Positions 795 through 7,342 of a DNA stretch of 8,478 nucleotides are shown piece by piece. Within the stretch, counting starts at the first letter, position 1. Every line of letters begins with the position of its first letter. Under the pieces are notes generated by a model. The model was not told where the DNA came from and ran no database searches. It saw only the letters and a list, made by a program, of their open reading frames with translations. The position numbers were made by a program, and so were the translations under genes. This DNA is from a virus (lineage: Duplodnaviria > Heunggongvirae > Uroviricota > Caudoviricetes), in the IMG/VR virus record IMGVR_UViG_2541047850_000013, one strand, 5' to 3'.

Positions 795-1892
795 TTATGG
801 TATTAATCCAGCTGTTCTTGCTTTATTAATATAATTTTTACAGTGGTTAGCCAAATACTCTGCAAACTTGCATGGAAGTGCATTTCCTATTATGACGCAT
901 ACTTTATCCATCAAAGCTGTATCAAACACATAGTTATCAGGAAAAGTCTGTAGTCTAGCAGCTTCTCGAACAGAAATAGTACGCGTATCCTCAGGATGTC
1001 CATATCGCCCACGGCTTAAAGTTGTGCACCCACCTGTAATCGTAGGCGATACGTCATCCCAAAGCATACGACCATAAACATTACTAAATCCTTTATAGTC
1101 GCCTTTATGGCAATCTGGACGGAGTTCTTCGGGAATACACTCCCAAGACATCCCTGGAACAGCCGCTTGTAACCGCTTTATATTGATCTCAGACAAATCC
1201 CTAACAATATGCCAACTCGACAATGGAAACTTCCCTTGCTTCTTAGCCTGTGAAAGAGTTAAGGGTTTTGGCATATCTCCAATAGCTTCTTTAACAGTTA
1301 CCCATTTGGGTTTCTCTCTTCCATCCTTAGAGTGTGATCCATCAGGCAATGGGATGGCAAATCCTTTTCCTGCCAACAGAACAAGCCTTTTTCTGAACTG
1401 TGGTACACCAAAGTCAGCTACTTGCAAAACTCCATAATTAACTATGTAACCAAGTTTTTTCAATCTCTCAATTACTGGCGAAAGAAGATGATTTCCCCGG
1501 GAAGCTAATCCAGGAACATTTTCCATCATGATTGCTGATGGATTGGTTTCTTCAACCAACCGTAACATCTCGTTAATCAATAAATTACGAGGGTCCTCCC
1601 TTTTATACTTGGCAGTGAGACTAGTAAATCCTTGACATGGCGGGCACGCAGATAAAAGATCTAAATGTTGCTCAGGGATAAGATTTAGGATATCACTCCC
1701 CTTTACAAACCGAATATCTTGAACAAAGAGTTTTGTCTCACGATGATTTGCTTGGAAAGTAGCGGCGGCATGTGCGTCCAGTTCAACGGCAGCTTTGACA
1801 TCAAACCCGGCCATTTTTAGTCCCATGGTTAGTCCCCCACCACCGCTAAATAGGTCAACTGCATTCAAACTGGTCACTGTTTTCTCACTCAT
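795..1892 (-). CDS. DNA (cytosine-5)-methyltransferase, 365 aa
   Basis: All diagnostic C5-MTase motifs in canonical order: motif I DLFSGGGG (aa 13-20, AdoMet binding), motif IV PPCQGF with catalytic Cys86, motif VI ENV (aa 124-126), motif VIII QFRKR (aa 165-169), motif IX RTISVREAARLQTFPDNY, motif X GNALP (aa 336-340). A variable target-recognition region lies between motifs VIII and IX. ATG at 1892 overlaps the upstream gene's stop. Confidence 0.93.
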   Translation of the reverse strand: MSEKTVTSLNAVDLFSGGGGLTMGLKMAGFDVKAAVELDAHAAATFQANHRETKLFVQDIRFVKGSDILNLIPEQHLDLLSACPPCQGFTSLTAKYKREDPRNLLINEMLRLVEETNPSAIMMENVPGLASRGNHLLSPVIERLKKLGYIVNYGVLQVADFGVPQFRKRLVLLAGKGFAIPLPDGSHSKDGREKPKWVTVKEAIGDMPKPLTLSQAKKQGKFPLSSWHIVRDLSEINIKRLQAAVPGMSWECIPEELRPDCHKGDYKGFSNVYGRMLWDDVSPTITGGCTTLSRGRYGHPEDTRTISVREAARLQTFPDNYVFDTALMDKVCVIIGNALPCKFAEYLANHCKNYINKARTAGLIP

Positions 1893-3996
1893 TATTTCCC
1901 AACTTCAACTGTTCTGCCTCATCCAAGAATTCTTGGTGAGTTTGAGTTGTCCTCAGCAAGAACCCTGCCCAATCAACGGGTGTTAGGCGTTTTTCTTCGA
2001 TGTATGCAGTATAAGCTTTACGACGTGCCCCACTCAAGCGCTCCCCATCACTTACCAGCGTAACGTGAAAATCAGATGCTATTGATTTAAAATCATTATG
2101 TCTCTCATCGTTCAAAAACTCCTCGAATGTTTCGAAGTAATTAATAATACGATCCATTTCATCATTGGAAATATAATGATGTGGCTTTTTTATTTCAATT
2201 ATTTGTAATTTTCCATCCTGACTAAACAATACAAAGTCTGGTCTTTTATTTTTTTTATCAAAATCTATAAGAAATATCTCCTCACCAGTTTTCTTTTTAT
2301 AAAATTTTTGAAATTCCCTTTTAAGCGTGGACAACGTTTTATTTGCTGTAACTGGGACCCATTGAGGGTTAACTAGCCACGGAGCGGATGCAATTAGATC
2401 TTGTAACTCATCTTCTGCTGTATCCTTTGCGTCTTTTAAAGACTCGAGACGCTCAATAATCTGAAGACGCTTTTTGACCTTTTGACCAAAACTAACGGTT
2501 TCAGCTAGTTGAGCCGTTGCTAAAATATCGTTGAGAACATTGAGCGGTGTATCCGCTTTACTGGAAGCTTCTATTAACTTCTCATCTAAGGATTGTAATG
2601 GTGCTAACATAATACTTAACTGCACTAAATTCTCGAGTGCATCAGGATCATGTAATTCATCACCTCGTAAAGATTTACCCAACAACTTGGCTATTTTTTT
2701 AGCCTGTGCTCGCATATCCTTTTGACCGGCTCCAGGGTATGCTTGCTCGACCTTATCCTCCACTTGCGCTAATTCGAAGAATTGATTCATCATATTATTT
2801 CTAAGGGGGTCGCGAGTTATTTTACCCACAAGTAAAATAACTTCTTGCCCCCAATTCTGAAATTGCGTTCCTAAATCATCAGACCATAGAATATCCCTTC
2901 TATCAGTTTGGATAAGATCTTCTTTTTCGTCTAACCAGTCAGCATGCAACTCACCTACCAAATATGAACGTATAGAGTGCTCTCCAGTAAAACCAGCTTT
3001 TCTATTAAAAACTGCTGTTTGCGCAGCAAACTTACCTCGGCAATAAATTCTAACACCTGCCATTAACTCGTCCTTATAAGGCTCTTTCGCGTATGCAATC
3101 CAACCTAATATCGGGTAAGCTTTCCCTTCATGTTCAAAACCGGCCTTAACAATTGATGAACGCGTGCCGTCAGGATTAAAAGCCGTATAATCACTTAAAT
3201 CCGTACAAGAATCTGTCGCAATACTTCCACTCATGGAACGAAATTCAATTTTAGAGTTAGGCATAACAGGAACAGTAAACTCTCCGACCTCAACTTCATA
3301 GTCAGGATTAGACTTTGTTTTCGAAGTATCAATCAGTTTAATATTCCAGTTTTTACTCTTCACTCCAAAACGTTGTGAAAGCTGCCGAGATAAATCTTTT
3401 ATTTCGCTAATTTTTCTATATTCAAAATCACTTAATATTATTTTAGTATAGGTCCTGTCACTTAGTGTGCCGTCTAAATCCCCAGTTTCCGGTTTATAAG
3501 ACACTGCAGTATCATCCATTATTTTTTCTTTATCTAGCTGAATATGAGCAACCTCATACCCTTCCTTTCCATCACGACTGATTTTTTCCCCACCGGCACT
3601 TATAATCTCGACCCTTTTACAAACACCAAAAGGTGCTAATTTCCCAACGCCTTTCCGTCCCATGACTTTGCGGTGAAACACCTTCGAGGTTTCACCTCTT
3701 TTTGGATCCTTACGTCTTTCTTTGCCAACAACCAAATAAAAGTTCTGTAGTTCATCAGGCGCCATTCCGACGCCATTATCTTCTACTTCTATTGTGACAT
3801 TTTTTGACCTGACAACACCATCCTGTCTAACAGCCAAGTATTGGCCCATAGGTGCTTTTATAGTGACATTAGTCGCATCTGCATCGTAACTGTTAGATAC
3901 TAATTCGGCTATAACAGCATAAGCCCTGTCATATAATTTCACACCTAATTTATCTACTGTCATCCTTGATATCTGCATTTCATATTGACGCGCCAT
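1885..3996 (-). CDS. GHKL-superfamily (MutL/MORC-like) ATPase with central helical region and C-terminal PD-(D/E)xK-like nuclease motif, 703 aa; candidate restriction/effector subunit
   Basis: ATG at 3996 with AGGA 7 nt upstream. Bergerat-fold motifs: N-box ELVSNSYDAD (aa 31-40), G1 box DNGVGM (aa 73-78), G2 box GRKGVGKLAPFG (aa 113-124). Residues about 440-540 are charged, helix-prone and coiled-coil-like. C-terminus GEEIFLIDFDKKNKRPDFVLFSQDGKLQIIEIKKP gives E573...PD587...E601-x-K603. Stop overlaps the methyltransferase start by 8 nt (ATGAGTGA). Confidence 0.85.
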   Translation of the reverse strand: MARQYEMQISRMTVDKLGVKLYDRAYAVIAELVSNSYDADATNVTIKAPMGQYLAVRQDGVVRSKNVTIEVEDNGVGMAPDELQNFYLVVGKERRKDPKRGETSKVFHRKVMGRKGVGKLAPFGVCKRVEIISAGGEKISRDGKEGYEVAHIQLDKEKIMDDTAVSYKPETGDLDGTLSDRTYTKIILSDFEYRKISEIKDLSRQLSQRFGVKSKNWNIKLIDTSKTKSNPDYEVEVGEFTVPVMPNSKIEFRSMSGSIATDSCTDLSDYTAFNPDGTRSSIVKAGFEHEGKAYPILGWIAYAKEPYKDELMAGVRIYCRGKFAAQTAVFNRKAGFTGEHSIRSYLVGELHADWLDEKEDLIQTDRRDILWSDDLGTQFQNWGQEVILLVGKITRDPLRNNMMNQFFELAQVEDKVEQAYPGAGQKDMRAQAKKIAKLLGKSLRGDELHDPDALENLVQLSIMLAPLQSLDEKLIEASSKADTPLNVLNDILATAQLAETVSFGQKVKKRLQIIERLESLKDAKDTAEDELQDLIASAPWLVNPQWVPVTANKTLSTLKREFQKFYKKKTGEEIFLIDFDKKNKRPDFVLFSQDGKLQIIEIKKPHHYISNDEMDRIINYFETFEEFLNDERHNDFKSIASDFHVTLVSDGERLSGARRKAYTAYIEEKRLTPVDWAGFLLRTTQTHQEFLDEAEQLKLGNNE

Positions 3997-4090
3997 TTAA
4001 ATATCCTTCTAAAAGAGTATTTTTTGCTCAAAAAGGGGAAGTTTATGTTTGACTAACATAGCAAAAAAACTTTCATCTTCAAGAGGTTCA
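3997..4090 (-). promoter_or_regulatory. RBS and AT-rich putative promoter region for the ATPase/methyltransferase cassette
   Basis: AGGA at 4004..4007 (minus strand), 7 nt from the ATG. Upstream sequence is very A+T-rich with weak sigma70-like hexamers (for example TTGAAG-16-TATGTT on the minus strand). No single convincing -35/-10 pair. Confidence 0.3.
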
Positions 4091-4343
4091 CACCAAAAGA
4101 ATTTACCTGGTTCACATAACCAGCTGGATTAGTGTTGAGTTTTGGGTAAACCTGAGGATTGAGAAACCAGTACTGATAAATGGGTATCCGCTGTTTTCGT
4201 CCCTCTCCTGAGCTACCGTGTATTGAAATGGCATCGACACTATTACATGGTAGGAGGTTGTATGTATGGTTTAGATATTTTGCATCTTTCACAGACACTT
4301 TTTACCTTTGCCATATCCTTCCACATTGTTTCTCCGGAAATCA

Positions 4344-4511
4344 CTAACGGTTTGGCATTTGCAGAACCATTATCAGCCATAGCTTCTTGCCGTTAACTTC
4401 GGTTGCACCTGATTGTTGCTCACCTTCAGGCAATGATGGGTTATATACACGGACTGAGCTCACTGCAGTAACAACCTTCCCAGTCAACTTACCTATGCTT
4501 TCAACCATCAT
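4344..4511 (-). CDS. Small hypothetical ORF (55 aa); coding status doubtful
   Basis: ORF-track ORF 4344..4565 trimmed to the first ATG (MMVESIGKL...); listed start is TTG. Weak RBS, and an alternative 46-codon ORF (4240..4380, minus strand) overlaps in another frame. Confidence 0.2.
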   Translation of the reverse strand: MMVESIGKLTGKVVTAVSSVRVYNPSLPEGEQQSGATEVNGKKLWLIMVLQMPNR

Positions 4512-4572
4512 CGTAGCGGCATACTTCCGAATTGCTATTATTTCAATTCTGCACCGTTTGCTCAATGTAACG

Positions 4573-4983
4573 CTACCTAAAACGTCGCCGATAGAACGCC
4601 AGCACGCGCTGCATAACTTCGCTCTTCCGGCACTCGCTACAGATTATGTTCTGACGCCTGTCATAACGACGTATTTCTCCATCAGGTAATGACCAGATAA
4701 GGTCCGGATCAACCGCAGATGGTTTCTTCAGCTTTGCCCTTGAGAGCTTTTTACGGGCATTTTGCCAGTCCTTACGCGCCTGTTCAGACGGGAATAACCC
4801 GTAACTAGGGTTGTATACATCGCCACTGGCAACCAGCTCTCTGGCCAGAACGCTCATCAGATATCTTGTTGCCCCAGTTTTAGCTTCCAGTTGTCGTAAC
4901 GTCTCACGCCCACTCTGGCGTACGAGTTCAAGAACCTGCCCTTTAATTTTTTCCCGCTCTTCTTGTGTAAAAACTTTTGCCAC
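4573..4983 (-). CDS. Ren-like protein (phage lambda ren family) with N-terminal extension, 136 aa
   Basis: GTG start at 4983 preceded by strong AGGAGG 4 nt upstream. Central KTGAT...LARELVASG and C-terminal SECRKSEVMQRVLAFY resemble, from memory, lambda Ren (…ALTGAT…MARAGLL… and …KECRQSAAMKRVLAVY…). Sits directly after the replication gene, as ren does in lambda. Confidence 0.5.
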   Translation of the reverse strand: MAKVFTQEEREKIKGQVLELVRQSGRETLRQLEAKTGATRYLMSVLARELVASGDVYNPSYGLFPSEQARKDWQNARKKLSRAKLKKPSAVDPDLIWSLPDGEIRRYDRRQNIICSECRKSEVMQRVLAFYRRRFR

Positions 4984-5023
4984 AAGCCCTCCTGAAAATT
5001 ACCTCATGACCAGAAATTAACAC

Positions 5024-5986
5024 TTACCCCCTGAAGCCCGGCGGAATTTCAGTGTCCGGTTCAGAAATGTGATTCACGCAACGCTGCGCAGGCGAACGCC
5101 CCAGGCGGATAACCAGTTCATCCCATTTTTCCCGGAGTTTTGCCGGACTCATGATGTTTTTTACCCAGAACGAATCCCGCTGGAGACGCCCAAACATTTC
5201 ACAAATTTGTCTGTGAGTTCTGCCATCCAGCATCCGCATTGTGCGAACGTCATTGGCCCATGCTGTCCAGTTGGGTTCTTTCGGTCTAGTGATCTCGCCA
5301 TCATAGCTGGCCGCCTGCTCGTAAAGACTCACGATTCGTCCCCAGATCCACTGTGCGCACACCAAATCTTCCTGACTTCCCCACTGGCGTTTTTTCGCAC
5401 TGAACACAACCGCGTCAGGGTGTCGGGTTAAAAAATCCTGTTCAGCCGTCTGCGGGTCCGGTTGCGAAGCGTCAGGACAAGAAGATCTTTTATCTGACGG
5501 ATCAGGTTTTAATACTGACGGATCGGGGTCAATCATCGCCCCCCTAATCGGCAGTTTTTTATCAACAGTTGATCCATCAAAATTTGACGGGTCAACCGTT
5601 GAGGGGTCAATATTTGACGGGTCAACTGTTAACGGGTCATTTTTTGCCGGGCTAATTTTTCTTTTCGGTTTATATGACTCACGCGCCGCCGCCGCAGCTG
5701 CTTCGAGTTTTTCCACATTAAGTCGATAGATATTGCTTACATTACGCCCACCGACCTTACGCTCTTCCTTCGTCAGCCAGCCCTCTTTCGCCAGTTCTGC
5801 AATAGCCGATTTCACTGTGGATTCACTTCTTGCACCGATCTGACGCCGGATAGTTTCAATGGCAGGCCATGACACGCCCTCGTCATTGCTGTAGTCTGCA
5901 AGACGGGCCATAACCGCCACCCTGGATAAGATCATGCCGGTGAAGGCGCACCCTTCCCAGACAAGACCATGAAGCTTGCTGCTCAT
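5024..5986 (-). CDS. Phage replication initiator (lambda O-like / replisome organiser) with N-terminal winged-HTH domain and internal repeat linker, about 320 aa
   Basis: ATG at 5986 preceded by G-rich RBS (alternative GTG at 6001). N-terminus MARLADYSNDEGVSWPAIETIRRQIGARSESTVKSAIAELAKEGWL is typical of phage replication-initiator HTH domains. The linker carries 5-aa repeats (VDPSN-like) encoded by 15-bp DNA iterons. Follows the cro-like and YdaT-like genes as O follows cro-cII in lambda. Confidence 0.75.
   Translation of the reverse strand: MSSKLHGLVWEGCAFTGMILSRVAVMARLADYSNDEGVSWPAIETIRRQIGARSESTVKSAIAELAKEGWLTKEERKVGGRNVSNIYRLNVEKLEAAAAAARESYKPKRKISPAKNDPLTVDPSNIDPSTVDPSNFDGSTVDKKLPIRGAMIDPDPSVLKPDPSDKRSSCPDASQPDPQTAEQDFLTRHPDAVVFSAKKRQWGSQEDLVCAQWIWGRIVSLYEQAASYDGEITRPKEPNWTAWANDVRTMRMLDGRTHRQICEMFGRLQRDSFWVKNIMSPAKLREKWDELVIRLGRSPAQRCVNHISEPDTEIPPGFRG
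5569..5675. repeat. Putative origin of replication: six 15-bp-spaced iterons plus adjacent A+T-rich tract, inside the replication gene
   Basis: Direct repeats at exact 15-bp period starting 5569, 5584, 5599, 5614, 5629, 5644: TTGATCCATCAA, TTGACGGGTCAA, TTGAGGGGTCAA, TTGACGGGTCAA, TTAACGGGTCAT, TTGCCGGGCTAA. Each is an imperfect palindrome (TTGAC..GTCAA). A+T-rich tract follows (about 5640..5675). Confidence 0.6.
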
Positions 5987-6008
5987 AAAACCCCCGAACA
6001 CCGTGCTT

Positions 6009-6434
6009 TTAGTGCATCACCACAGCATTCCCTGCCGGGCCGCCGCGATTCATCTGGTCATACAAAACAACCGCTGACGCAACAAAATCATCGACATCCT
6101 TCACCAGCCGATCCCTCCGTTCGACGATCTCACGGTAATATTCAGAACTGTGGCTGCGCATACGGGCCACCAGCAAAGGCGGCATCGCCTTTTCGATCGC
6201 CGGTAACAGAGCCTGCATTTTTTCAACAGCATCAGGGGTGTCTTTATCCAGCCAACGGAAAATTTTCTGGGTATTACGGGCCAGGGCTTCCGGATGGCTG
6301 TCGTCGTACAGTTCAGGGAACGTCATCCCCAGTTCGAAATAAGTCCGGGCTATTTCAGCTGCAGGAACTTTCTCACCATCAGGGTATGCCCAGGCATTCA
6401 TCGCCATGCGGATGTGCTCATGTTTGATTTTCAT
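6009..6434 (-). CDS. ydaT: YdaT-like protein (occupies the cII position; family reported toxic when derepressed in Rac prophage), 141 aa
   Basis: ATG at 6434 with AGAGG RBS; N-terminus MKIKHEHI... recalled as characteristic of YdaT-family proteins. Overlaps the upstream cro-like gene by 17 nt. Family assignment is from memory, not a search. Confidence 0.65.
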   Translation of the reverse strand: MKIKHEHIRMAMNAWAYPDGEKVPAAEIARTYFELGMTFPELYDDSHPEALARNTQKIFRWLDKDTPDAVEKMQALLPAIEKAMPPLLVARMRSHSSEYYREIVERRDRLVKDVDDFVASAVVLYDQMNRGGPAGNAVVMH

Positions 6435-6741
6435 GAATCATTTGCCTCTTGATGCTTCGGGTATGATCGTTTTCGTCATTTGGTTGCTTCATCGACATAT
6501 TCTGCGAATAACATGACGAGCGTCGTAAGTATGTCCAATCAACATCAGGACGAAGTTCTTCACACAGGACACCACCTTTTGTTGCTCGTTCAATCGCAGG
6601 ACATCTCTCAGCAGGTAACTGACGTACACCTTTGATCCATTGATTTACGCTTGGAGGAGATACACCTAAAAGCCTAGCCATTGCTGATTGCCCACCGACA
6701 ACAGCACAAGCTCGTTTGAATGAATAGTTATCTTTTTTCAT
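6418..6741 (-). CDS. ydaS: Cro-like HTH regulator of the YdaS family, 107 aa
   Basis: ATG at 6741 with GGAG 8 nt upstream (ORF-track start at 6762 is GTG and was trimmed). HTH region QSAMARLLGVSPPSVNQWIKG followed by the LPAERCPAIERAT motif recalled from YdaS/Cro-like proteins. Divergent from the repressor gene. Confidence 0.8.
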   Translation of the reverse strand: MKKDNYSFKRACAVVGGQSAMARLLGVSPPSVNQWIKGVRQLPAERCPAIERATKGGVLCEELRPDVDWTYLRRSSCYSQNMSMKQPNDENDHTRSIKRQMIHENQT

Positions 6742-6768
6742 CGAATGAACTCCAAAAAACACGCAACA

Positions 6769-6838
6769 ATATTAGGCTTAGCCTAATGAAATTGTCAATA
6801 GGCTATGCCTAATACATCGAGAGTAGGGATTGCCTAAC
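6769..6838. promoter_or_regulatory. OR-like region: three 17-bp palindromic operators overlapping a leftward sigma70 promoter for the cro-like operon
   Basis: Operators ATTAGGCTTAGCCTAAT (6771..6787), AATAGGCTATGCCTAAT (6797..6813) and degenerate AGTAGGGATTGCCTAAC (6822..6838), centres about 25 bp apart. Minus-strand promoter: -35 TTGACA (complement of 6793..6798), 18-bp spacer, -10 TAATAT (complement of 6769..6774). Confidence 0.65.
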
Positions 6839-6865
6839 GCGATGCGCATAGGAGACTATTAAGCA

Positions 6866-7342
6866 ATGCTTAGTGGTAAAGACTTAGGCCGAGCGATAGA
6901 GCAGGCCATTAACAAAAAAATTGCATCAGGAGCCGTCAAATCAAAGGCGGAAATCGCACGTCATTTCAAAGTCCAACCACCATCAATCCATGACTGGATT
7001 AAGAAAGGTTCGATAAGTAAAGACAAACTTCCAGAACTATGGCGTTTCTTTTCTGATGTGGTTGGTCCAGAGCATTGGGGGCTTAACGAATACCCCATAC
7101 CAACCCCATCCACTTCAGATACAAAAAGTGAACTTTTAGACATAAACAGCCTTTATCAAGCCGCCTCTGATGAAAAAAAAGCAATTGTGGCTTTCATCTT
7201 ATCTGGAAATGCTACGGAGCCTAGTTGGGTTGATTATGACGTTCGCGCCTACATTGCCGCAATGGAAATGAAGGTAGCTAACTATCTGAAAAATCAAGAA
7301 TCAAAACGGAAAAGCCAGAACATCACCAAGACAGGAACTTAA
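6866..7342 (+). CDS. racR: CI-like prophage repressor, RacR-like, without an autocleavage domain, 158 aa
   Basis: ATG at 6866 with GGAG upstream. N-terminal HTH KSKAEIARHFKVQPPSIHDWIKKG. No S24 peptidase (LexA-like Ser/Lys) motifs visible. Divergent from the YdaS/YdaT-like genes and flanked by operator sets on both sides; length matches RacR as recalled. Confidence 0.8.
   Translation: MLSGKDLGRAIEQAINKKIASGAVKSKAEIARHFKVQPPSIHDWIKKGSISKDKLPELWRFFSDVVGPEHWGLNEYPIPTPSTSDTKSELLDINSLYQAASDEKKAIVAFILSGNATEPSWVDYDVRAYIAAMEMKVANYLKNQESKRKSQNITKTGT

Follow-up and report, generated by a model that had tools for sequence, protein, structure and literature searches.

We analyzed an 8,478-nucleotide (nt) stretch of DNA from a tailed phage, IMG/VR record IMGVR_UViG_2541047850_000013 (the window, i.e., the whole stretch at its full length, numbered from its first letter), which carries on its minus strand a gene for a replication initiator resembling the O protein of phage lambda. 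A tandem array of short palindromes lies inside this gene at 5569-5655, and comparison of the sequence with its homologues indicates that the array, probably together with a pair of GATC-containing sites at 5494-5527, is most likely the replication origin of the prophage, located within its own initiator gene. The window matched E. coli chromosomes (sequence types ST648, ST131, and others) at 99.7-99.9% and is part of a lambdoid, Rac-like E. coli prophage; the full-length initiator gene occurs in ~1500 E. coli genomes. The initiator, its domains in amino acids (aa), and the sites within the gene, with sizes in base pairs (bp), are as follows.

5024..5986, minus strand: lambda-O-like replication initiator, 320 aa from the ATG at 5986, 963 nt (PHROG 391, Pfam HTH_36)
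5675..5986, minus strand: N-terminal winged-helix DNA-binding domain, aa 1-104 (AlphaFold2, Foldseek, Pfam HTH_36 at E 2e-6)
5087..5530, minus strand: lambda-O-type C-terminal domain (BLASTP against lambda O, 35% identity over 148 aa, E 5e-26)
5027..5089, minus strand: DnaT-like C-terminal tail, QRCVNHISEPDTEIPPGFRG (phmmer against PDB: 2ru8_A, 6aep_A, 9zbt_D)
5569, plus strand: repeat 1, TTGATCCATCAA, arm complementarity 5/5
5584, plus strand: repeat 2, TTGACGGGTCAA, arm complementarity 5/5
5599, plus strand: repeat 3, TTGAGGGGTCAA, arm complementarity 4/5
5614, plus strand: repeat 4, TTGACGGGTCAA, arm complementarity 5/5
5629, plus strand: repeat 5, TTAACGGGTCAT, degenerate, arm complementarity 3/5
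5644, plus strand: repeat 6, TTGCCGGGCTAA, degenerate, arm complementarity 3/5
5569..5625: four well-formed candidate iterons, 12-bp imperfect palindromes TTGAY-NN-RTCAA, phased at 15 bp
5629..5655: two degenerate units
5554..5565: terminal half-site, the ATCAA arm alone
5494-5506 and 5515-5527: two GATC-containing iteron-like sites 21 bp apart, CTGACGGATCAGG and CTGACGGATCGGG; sense strand GATCCGTCAG
5456..5491: mosaic junction between an N-domain-plus-repeats module and a C-terminal module (alignment of alleles; end of mEp460-type homology)
5640..5675: moderately A+T-rich tract, 69% A+T, A-rich on the sense strand, overlapping the weakest repeat

A preliminary description of this DNA had reported six repeats at an exact period of 15 bp, and the 12-mers beginning at 5569, 5584, 5599, 5614, 5629, and 5644 bear this out. 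Tandem Repeats Finder returned a period of 15 with 5.2 copies at 5562-5660, as well as a period-30 super-repeat over the same interval (2.3-2.5 copies, 82-84% matches), while a second repeat search recovered five copies at spacings of 15, 15, 15, and 15. Self-identity at lag 15 was 52/75 at 5561, compared with 32.0 +/- 1.8 (maximum 39) for the dinucleotide-shuffled window; the observed score was reached in none of 300 shuffles and was the best periodic signal in the entire window at lags of 4 to 60. That each repeat is an imperfect palindrome, as had also been proposed, holds for four units (arms complementary at 4-5 of 5 positions) and not for the two degenerate ones (3/5). The sense-strand unit reads xTT GAC CCG TCA Axx, and the repeats are in frame with the minus-strand gene, where they encode PLTVD, PSNID, PSTVD, PSNFD, and GSTVD. 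They fall in a linker (residues 111-169) that AlphaFold2 predicted to be disordered, with predicted local distance difference test (pLDDT) values below 50, which agrees with the earlier placement of the repeats in the initiator's linker as coding for five-residue repeats. The array occupies nt 332-418 of the initiator gene; the annotated iterons of lambda occupy nt 349-435 of O. One exact 15-bp unit (window 5621-5635) was absent from two other E. coli alleles (L002 and L003), i.e., the copy number is polymorphic within the species.

The initiator itself matched PHROG 391 ("replication initiation O-like") over its full length (E 2e-115), although its RefSeq product name is "helix-turn-helix domain-containing protein". 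The list of open reading frames begins the gene at a GTG at 6001; we preferred the ATG at 5986, with homologues beginning MSSKLHG. AlphaFold2 modeled the N-domain at pLDDT 82-93 as four helices followed by a beta-hairpin and a further helix, and the closest solved folds found by Foldseek were the winged-helix dimers of the ArsR/SmtB, MarR, and PadR families. BLASTP detected no pairwise similarity between this domain and the N-terminal part of lambda O. Since HTH_36 has also been detected in lambda O by HHpred (PMC5509034), any kinship of the two N-domains would be at the superfamily level only. Protein-database matches to an N-domain query (P0001-P0054) were 60-193 aa long, many of them labeled "partial", and many of the aligned ones stopped within the repeat-encoding linker; this suggests that the short matches reflect assembly breaks or frameshifts at the array.

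To judge the array against its relatives we used 80 loci from a scan of one genome per species in the Enterobacterales, with N-domains 42-65% identical in amino acid sequence. The motif, phasing, and gene position of the window's array recurred in homologues from about 70 species. Sites of the form YTGAY-NN-RTCAR stood in the same frame at gene nt ~305-480 in nearly all homologues, 2-9 units at period 15 were present in 73 of 78 full-length genes, and 304 spacings between successive in-frame TCA codons were equal to 15. The density of these sites was 10.1/kb in the linker versus 0.033/kb in the remaining 481 kb of locus sequence, a difference of ~300-fold. The typical unit was NNR TCA AAA TCT GAC, encoding x-S-K-S-D, and within the family the window-like subgroup had RTTGAC where the others had TCTGAC. 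Viable Shigella phage SfII carries three strict-motif sites within four units phased at 15 bp, as well as the GATC pair.

Codon usage in these genes was informative. The serine of D-x-S was encoded by TCA in 370 of 398 instances in the linker (93%) versus 26 of 142 elsewhere in the same genes (18%). Taking all serine codons, TCA accounted for 583 of 1135 in the linker versus 243 of 1480 elsewhere (Fisher p = 9e-82), with an excess in 76 of 77 genes. Between genes less than 60% identical, the linker serine codon was the same in 83% of comparisons, as against 32% for conserved four- and six-fold degenerate residues of the N-domain. The amino acids, by contrast, were far less constrained: the middle residue of the unit may be P, A, T, G, R, or V, and the residue preceding Asp varies (S, F, I, V) although its codon is always xYT. 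Within the subgroup that includes the window (L007-L015), a site may read TTGACCCCTCAA or, as the exact reverse complement, TTGAGGGGTCAA, which turns D-P-S into E-G-S. These results indicate that selection in the linker acts on the DNA sites and that the peptide is free to vary.

The GATC-containing sites next to the array are a second conserved element. Of 78 homologues, 74 had GATCCRTCA once or twice 3' of the array (gene nt 397-550), the copies usually being 24 nt apart, and the density of GATC in homologues was 10.9/kb in the linker versus 3.2/kb in the rest of the genes (3.4x). The window has four GATC sites within 5484-5574. From their sequences, the two members of the pair look like variants of the iteron that include a Dam site.

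Exchanges between initiator genes tie the type of repeat to the N-domain. Phages mEp460, HannyBb, and PhiR42_1 were 86% identical in DNA sequence to window 5024-5491, i.e., to the C-terminal module; the mEp460 initiator combines this shared module with a different N-domain and a different array at gene nt 330-459. Conversely, in alleles L002 and L003 the N-domain and array were nearly base-identical to those of the window except for the one 15-bp unit, while the genes had diverged from nt ~533 onward and were followed by a DnaC-like gene. YdaU, the initiator of Rac in K-12, carries a DUF1376 domain at its N-terminus and AAGCAGATGTTCAA repeats of its own at gene nt 353-444, in the place where lambda O has its four iterons. 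In the alignment of alleles, near-identity gave way to divergence at column ~533-546, and homology of the mEp460 type stopped at window 5491. Since both junctions lie just 3' of the GATC pair, the N-domain, array, and GATC pair are inherited as one module. The pattern of exchange indicates that the repeat sequence is specific to, and co-inherited with, the initiator's N-domain. 

The arrays of these relatives have features of their own. That of mEp460, also in the linker, comprises about five 23-bp palindromes, CATC...GATG (CATCAGGCCATTTTGACCCGATG-like), at a spacing of ~23 bp (L005 3507-3636), adjoined by three copies of a 12-bp repeat (L005 3468-3503). In ydaU (L006 3972-4063), four AAGCAGATGTTCAA-like copies with spacings of 33, 33, and 12 bp are unannotated in the K-12 record; they may be the iterons of oriJ, the known origin of Rac. 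Tandem Repeats Finder missed the variably spaced iterons of lambda, mEp460, and ydaU, which the second repeat search recovered.

The end of the protein is of interest for recruitment of the host helicase. The last 20 residues of the initiator were identical at 14 of 20 positions by BLASTP to residues 160-179 of K-12 DnaT, its extreme C-terminus; BLASTP gave no match to this tail in lambda O. The same tail stands at the end of replication proteins with varied product names in at least 46 phage records, which probably accounts for those named "primosomal protein I"; the weakest matches, e.g., that of a Rac YdaU record (68% identity, E 0.1), were marginal. The DnaT literature that we examined assigns no partner to DnaT residues 154-179. 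These proteins may all use the tail to dock to a host replication protein. As in the window, the initiator is followed by a DUF977/Ren-like gene and not by a loader in the ST131 prophage, mEp460, and SfII. In phage phiP27 (NC_003356, L087 10334-11260), the initiator likewise belongs to the HTH_36 family; the array there is degenerate, and a DnaC-like and a DnaB-like gene come after the initiator. The phiP27 initiator of NC_003356 seems at odds with the lambda-like O and origin described for "P27" (PMC7466680), and perhaps these are different phages.

Taken together, these features suggest the following course of events. Upstream of the array is a pR-like promoter (6798-6769), which shares its strand with the cro-like, cII-like, and initiator genes; judging from the layout, transcription starting there would both express the initiator and cross the origin. 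By analogy with lambda and the Stx phages, the winged-helix N-domain would bind the TTGAY-NN-RTCAA sites and assemble a multimeric, O-some-like nucleoprotein complex on the ~90-bp array. Neighboring DNA of low stability might then melt; modest A+T-rich segments flank the array on both sides, and none is conserved. The lambda-O-type C-domain and the DnaT-like tail would then recruit host DnaB, presumably in the form of DnaB-DnaC, given that the prophage has no loader gene of its own after the initiator. The encoded peptide repeats would be a by-product, lying in a linker predicted to be disordered.

Several points weigh against this reading, among them the A+T content. The array had been described as followed by an A+T-rich stretch, in the manner of lambda. 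The 69% A+T tract at 5640-5675 is indeed present; however, it is unremarkable, since 17% of window positions were at least as unstable in 40-nt windows, and it is absent as a conserved feature in homologues. It lies on the promoter-proximal side of the array (5' in the sense of the gene), whereas that of lambda lies 3', is 78% A+T, and is about 12 kcal/mol below local-mean stability versus about 4 for 5640-5675. Thus, when a strongly A+T-rich tract of ~40 bp was sought on the promoter-distal side, as in lambda, none was found, and the best candidate was the promoter-proximal one of 69% over 36 bp. Profiles averaged over 73 homologues contained no extended tract above 70% A+T on either side (about 57% across the array, and 60-68% in a short stretch close to the GATC pair), and we therefore rejected a conserved A+T-rich unwinding tract. 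The geometry also differs. Half-site centers are 7-8 bp apart and units 15 bp (about 1.4 helical turns), which does not fit the one-turn dimer geometry of the lambda iteron and places successive sites on different faces of the helix. No P- or DnaC-type loader gene directly follows the initiator, the next gene being DUF977/Ren-like. As for the homologues, the codon and site counts come from related sequences and are not independent events, and the unit logo, anchored on TCA, is circular; the serine-codon tests, defined by the peptide, are free of this circularity. Finally, an origin for this initiator family was neither annotated in the GenBank/RefSeq records inspected nor described in the literature searched, although the main review of phage replication modules, by Weigel and Seitz (2006), may list it.

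Other origin and regulatory elements were considered and rejected. A DnaA box, TTTTCCACA, at 5709-5717 was discounted on the grounds of two matches versus 1.07 expected and codons unconserved in homologues, and an oriC-like 13-mer, GATCTTTTATCTG, at 5484 on nine matches versus 5.2 expected. The TTGAC hexamers do not qualify as promoters, with no sigma-70-like site in or near the array. The FNR consensus is TTGAT-N4-ATCAA. The spacing of the repeats does not seem to fit the consensus sequences of FNR, CRP, or IHF sites.

Some of these discrepancies could be accommodated by a loader-less, DnaT-mimicking variant of the lambda mechanism, in which inverted half-sites 7-8 bp apart form a contiguous chain of 15-bp units, winged helices spiral along ~90 bp instead of occupying a single face, no dedicated A+T element is needed, GATC sites open to Dam methylation exert control, and DnaB-DnaC is captured directly through the tail. 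We regard this variant as possible but doubtful. 

A different explanation is that the sites serve control only, e.g., autorepression, roadblock, handcuffing, or Dam/SeqA timing; the protein bound would be the initiator or some other regulator, encoded by phage or host, and the true origin would lie elsewhere. Consistent with this are the want of a clear A+T-rich unwinding element beside the array, the conserved GATC sites adjoining it, and a 15-bp phasing unlike that of classical iterons. On the other hand, the arrays occupy the same gene position as the origin in lambda and the Stx phages (PMC7466680), no promoter lies in or beside the array, and no second cluster of the motif was present in the window or in the 481 kb of flanking sequence. 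Moreover, repeat type follows the N-domain and not the regulators, since the window and K-12 Rac share genes of the YdaS, YdaT, and RacR types and yet their arrays differ. We therefore consider a purely regulatory role quite unlikely, although control by the array and origin function are compatible and could coexist.

Two further explanations are very improbable. The repeats might be a protein feature alone, a repetitive, flexible Asp/Pro/Ser-rich linker whose DNA does nothing beyond coding; in favor of this are the in-frame five-residue repeats, the predicted disorder of the linker, and the D-, P-, S-, and K-rich linkers of homologues. Against it, conservation is higher at synonymous positions than in the amino acid sequence (TCA, 93% versus 18%; codon identity, 83% versus 32%), the middle residue varies freely, the residue before Asp keeps an xYT codon without being chemically constrained, and flipping a site to its reverse complement changes the peptide non-conservatively. 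Nor is the array at all likely to be mainly a hot spot of recombination or slippage at a mosaic junction, homogenized by concerted evolution and unbound by protein: although alleles differ by a one-unit insertion or deletion, a module junction lies ~80-110 bp away, and many homologues in the databases break off within the linker, that junction is outside the array, and homogenization within genes cannot keep the TGA-N4-TCA core, phase, and position across genera in which synonymous sites are randomized.

Returning to the origin within the initiator gene, the closest precedent is lambda itself. In lambdoid phages, the origin lies in the middle of O and consists of iterons plus an A+T-rich tract (PMC7466680). 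The prophage resembles ori-lambda in having a dyad-symmetric array in the linker-coding middle of the initiator gene (PMC7466680, PMC6022878), an encoded peptide that falls in a flexible linker, a homologous C-domain, and the gene order pR-like promoter, cro-like, cII-like, initiator. It differs in that lambda has four 19-bp iterons spaced at 20-24 bp, as opposed to 12-bp palindromes at 15 bp, the sequences being unrelated; lambda also has a P gene and the stronger A+T tract (78%, on the other side), and the DnaT-like tail of the window's initiator was not found in lambda O by BLASTP. Of the lambda-like arrangement put forward in the preliminary description, iteron-like repeats in the interdomain linker of an O-like initiator, placed in the gene as in lambda, were supported; the side and strength of the A+T tract were not, and the phasing and the missing loader gene are further departures from lambda. 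The origins of Stx phages 933W and P27, with six iterons (PMC7466680), likewise lie inside O, exceed four iterons, have weak outer iterons, and vary in number among relatives; however, their iterons are near-identical to those of lambda and use O plus P, and the window's sites and N-domain are different.

The origin of Rac has been described as active (PMC3945230; Potrykus et al., 2000, as cited in PMC11014345). K-12 Rac oriJ (ydaU-ydaV) shares with the window a neighborhood of a RacR-size repressor, YdaS, YdaT, initiator, and DUF977/YdaW, but in Rac YdaU is followed by the DnaC-like YdaV, absent from the window, and has a DUF1376 N-domain and other repeats. Iteron plasmids such as pSC101, R6K, RK2, F, and P1 also pair a winged-helix Rep with tandem cognate sites and with possible Dam/SeqA control at GATC (PMC4980987, PMC5043065); their iterons, in contrast, are ~17-22 bp, recur about every two turns, and lie outside rep beside DnaA boxes and a clear A+T-rich element. 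A search for such plasmid-type features near the array gave a single DnaA-box-like match and 13-mers at chance level. DopC, of the domesticated lambda O/P gene pair DopC/DopE (Brezellec et al., 2017; PMC5509034), similarly joins an HTH_36 N-domain to a DnaT C-terminal motif; it has no C-domain of the lambda-O type, and no iterons were found in that study, whereas the window gene has both. On these sequence comparisons, the arrangement most likely follows the lambda paradigm, with the origin inside the initiator gene and specificity residing in an N-domain-plus-iteron module, and is a new example rather than a new kind of system.

The remaining annotated features of the window are as follows.

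6769..6798, minus strand: pR-like sigma-70 promoter (TTGACA, 18-nt spacer, TAATAT), reading through the cro-like (YdaS), cII-like (YdaT), and initiator genes and the repeats
6418-6762, minus strand: YdaS/Cro-like gene (family matches)
6009-6434, minus strand: YdaT/cII-like gene (family matches)
4573-4983, minus strand: DUF977/Ren-like gene, next after the initiator (family matches)
6866-7342, plus strand: gene in the repressor position, 158 aa, the same length as K-12 RacR
795-1892, minus strand: C5 cytosine methyltransferase, overlapping the gene for the 703-aa protein
1885-3996, minus strand: 703-aa protein; domains, GHKL ATPase (Pfam HATPase_c_3) and HSDR_N-like; matched by PADLOC type II restriction-enzyme models

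The 158-aa gene had no match in Pfam or PHROG, and a DUF1391 gene is also encoded on the plus strand of the window. No terminator-like sites were found in 5000-6900, and the window had no Rfam matches to structured RNA. The two minus-strand cargo genes at 795-3996, in the early region of the prophage, are probably a restriction-modification or defense module. Between the restriction-like and DUF977 genes, ~570 bp (3997-4572) contain only short open reading frames with neither family nor Rfam matches.

These findings provide a testable candidate origin and a consensus (YTGAY-NN-RTCAR in 15-bp phase with the GATCCRTCA pair) for a family of initiators that many prophages of the Enterobacterales carry; the prophages and phages concerned include those of ST131 and ST648 E. 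coli and the Shigella serotype-converting phage SfII. They also offer a clear example from nature of coding sequence that carries an overprinted DNA signal, which helps annotation and the finding of origins by anomalies in codon usage. Finally, the loader-less layout combined with a DnaT-like tail suggests a route by which some temperate phages may recruit the helicase of their host.

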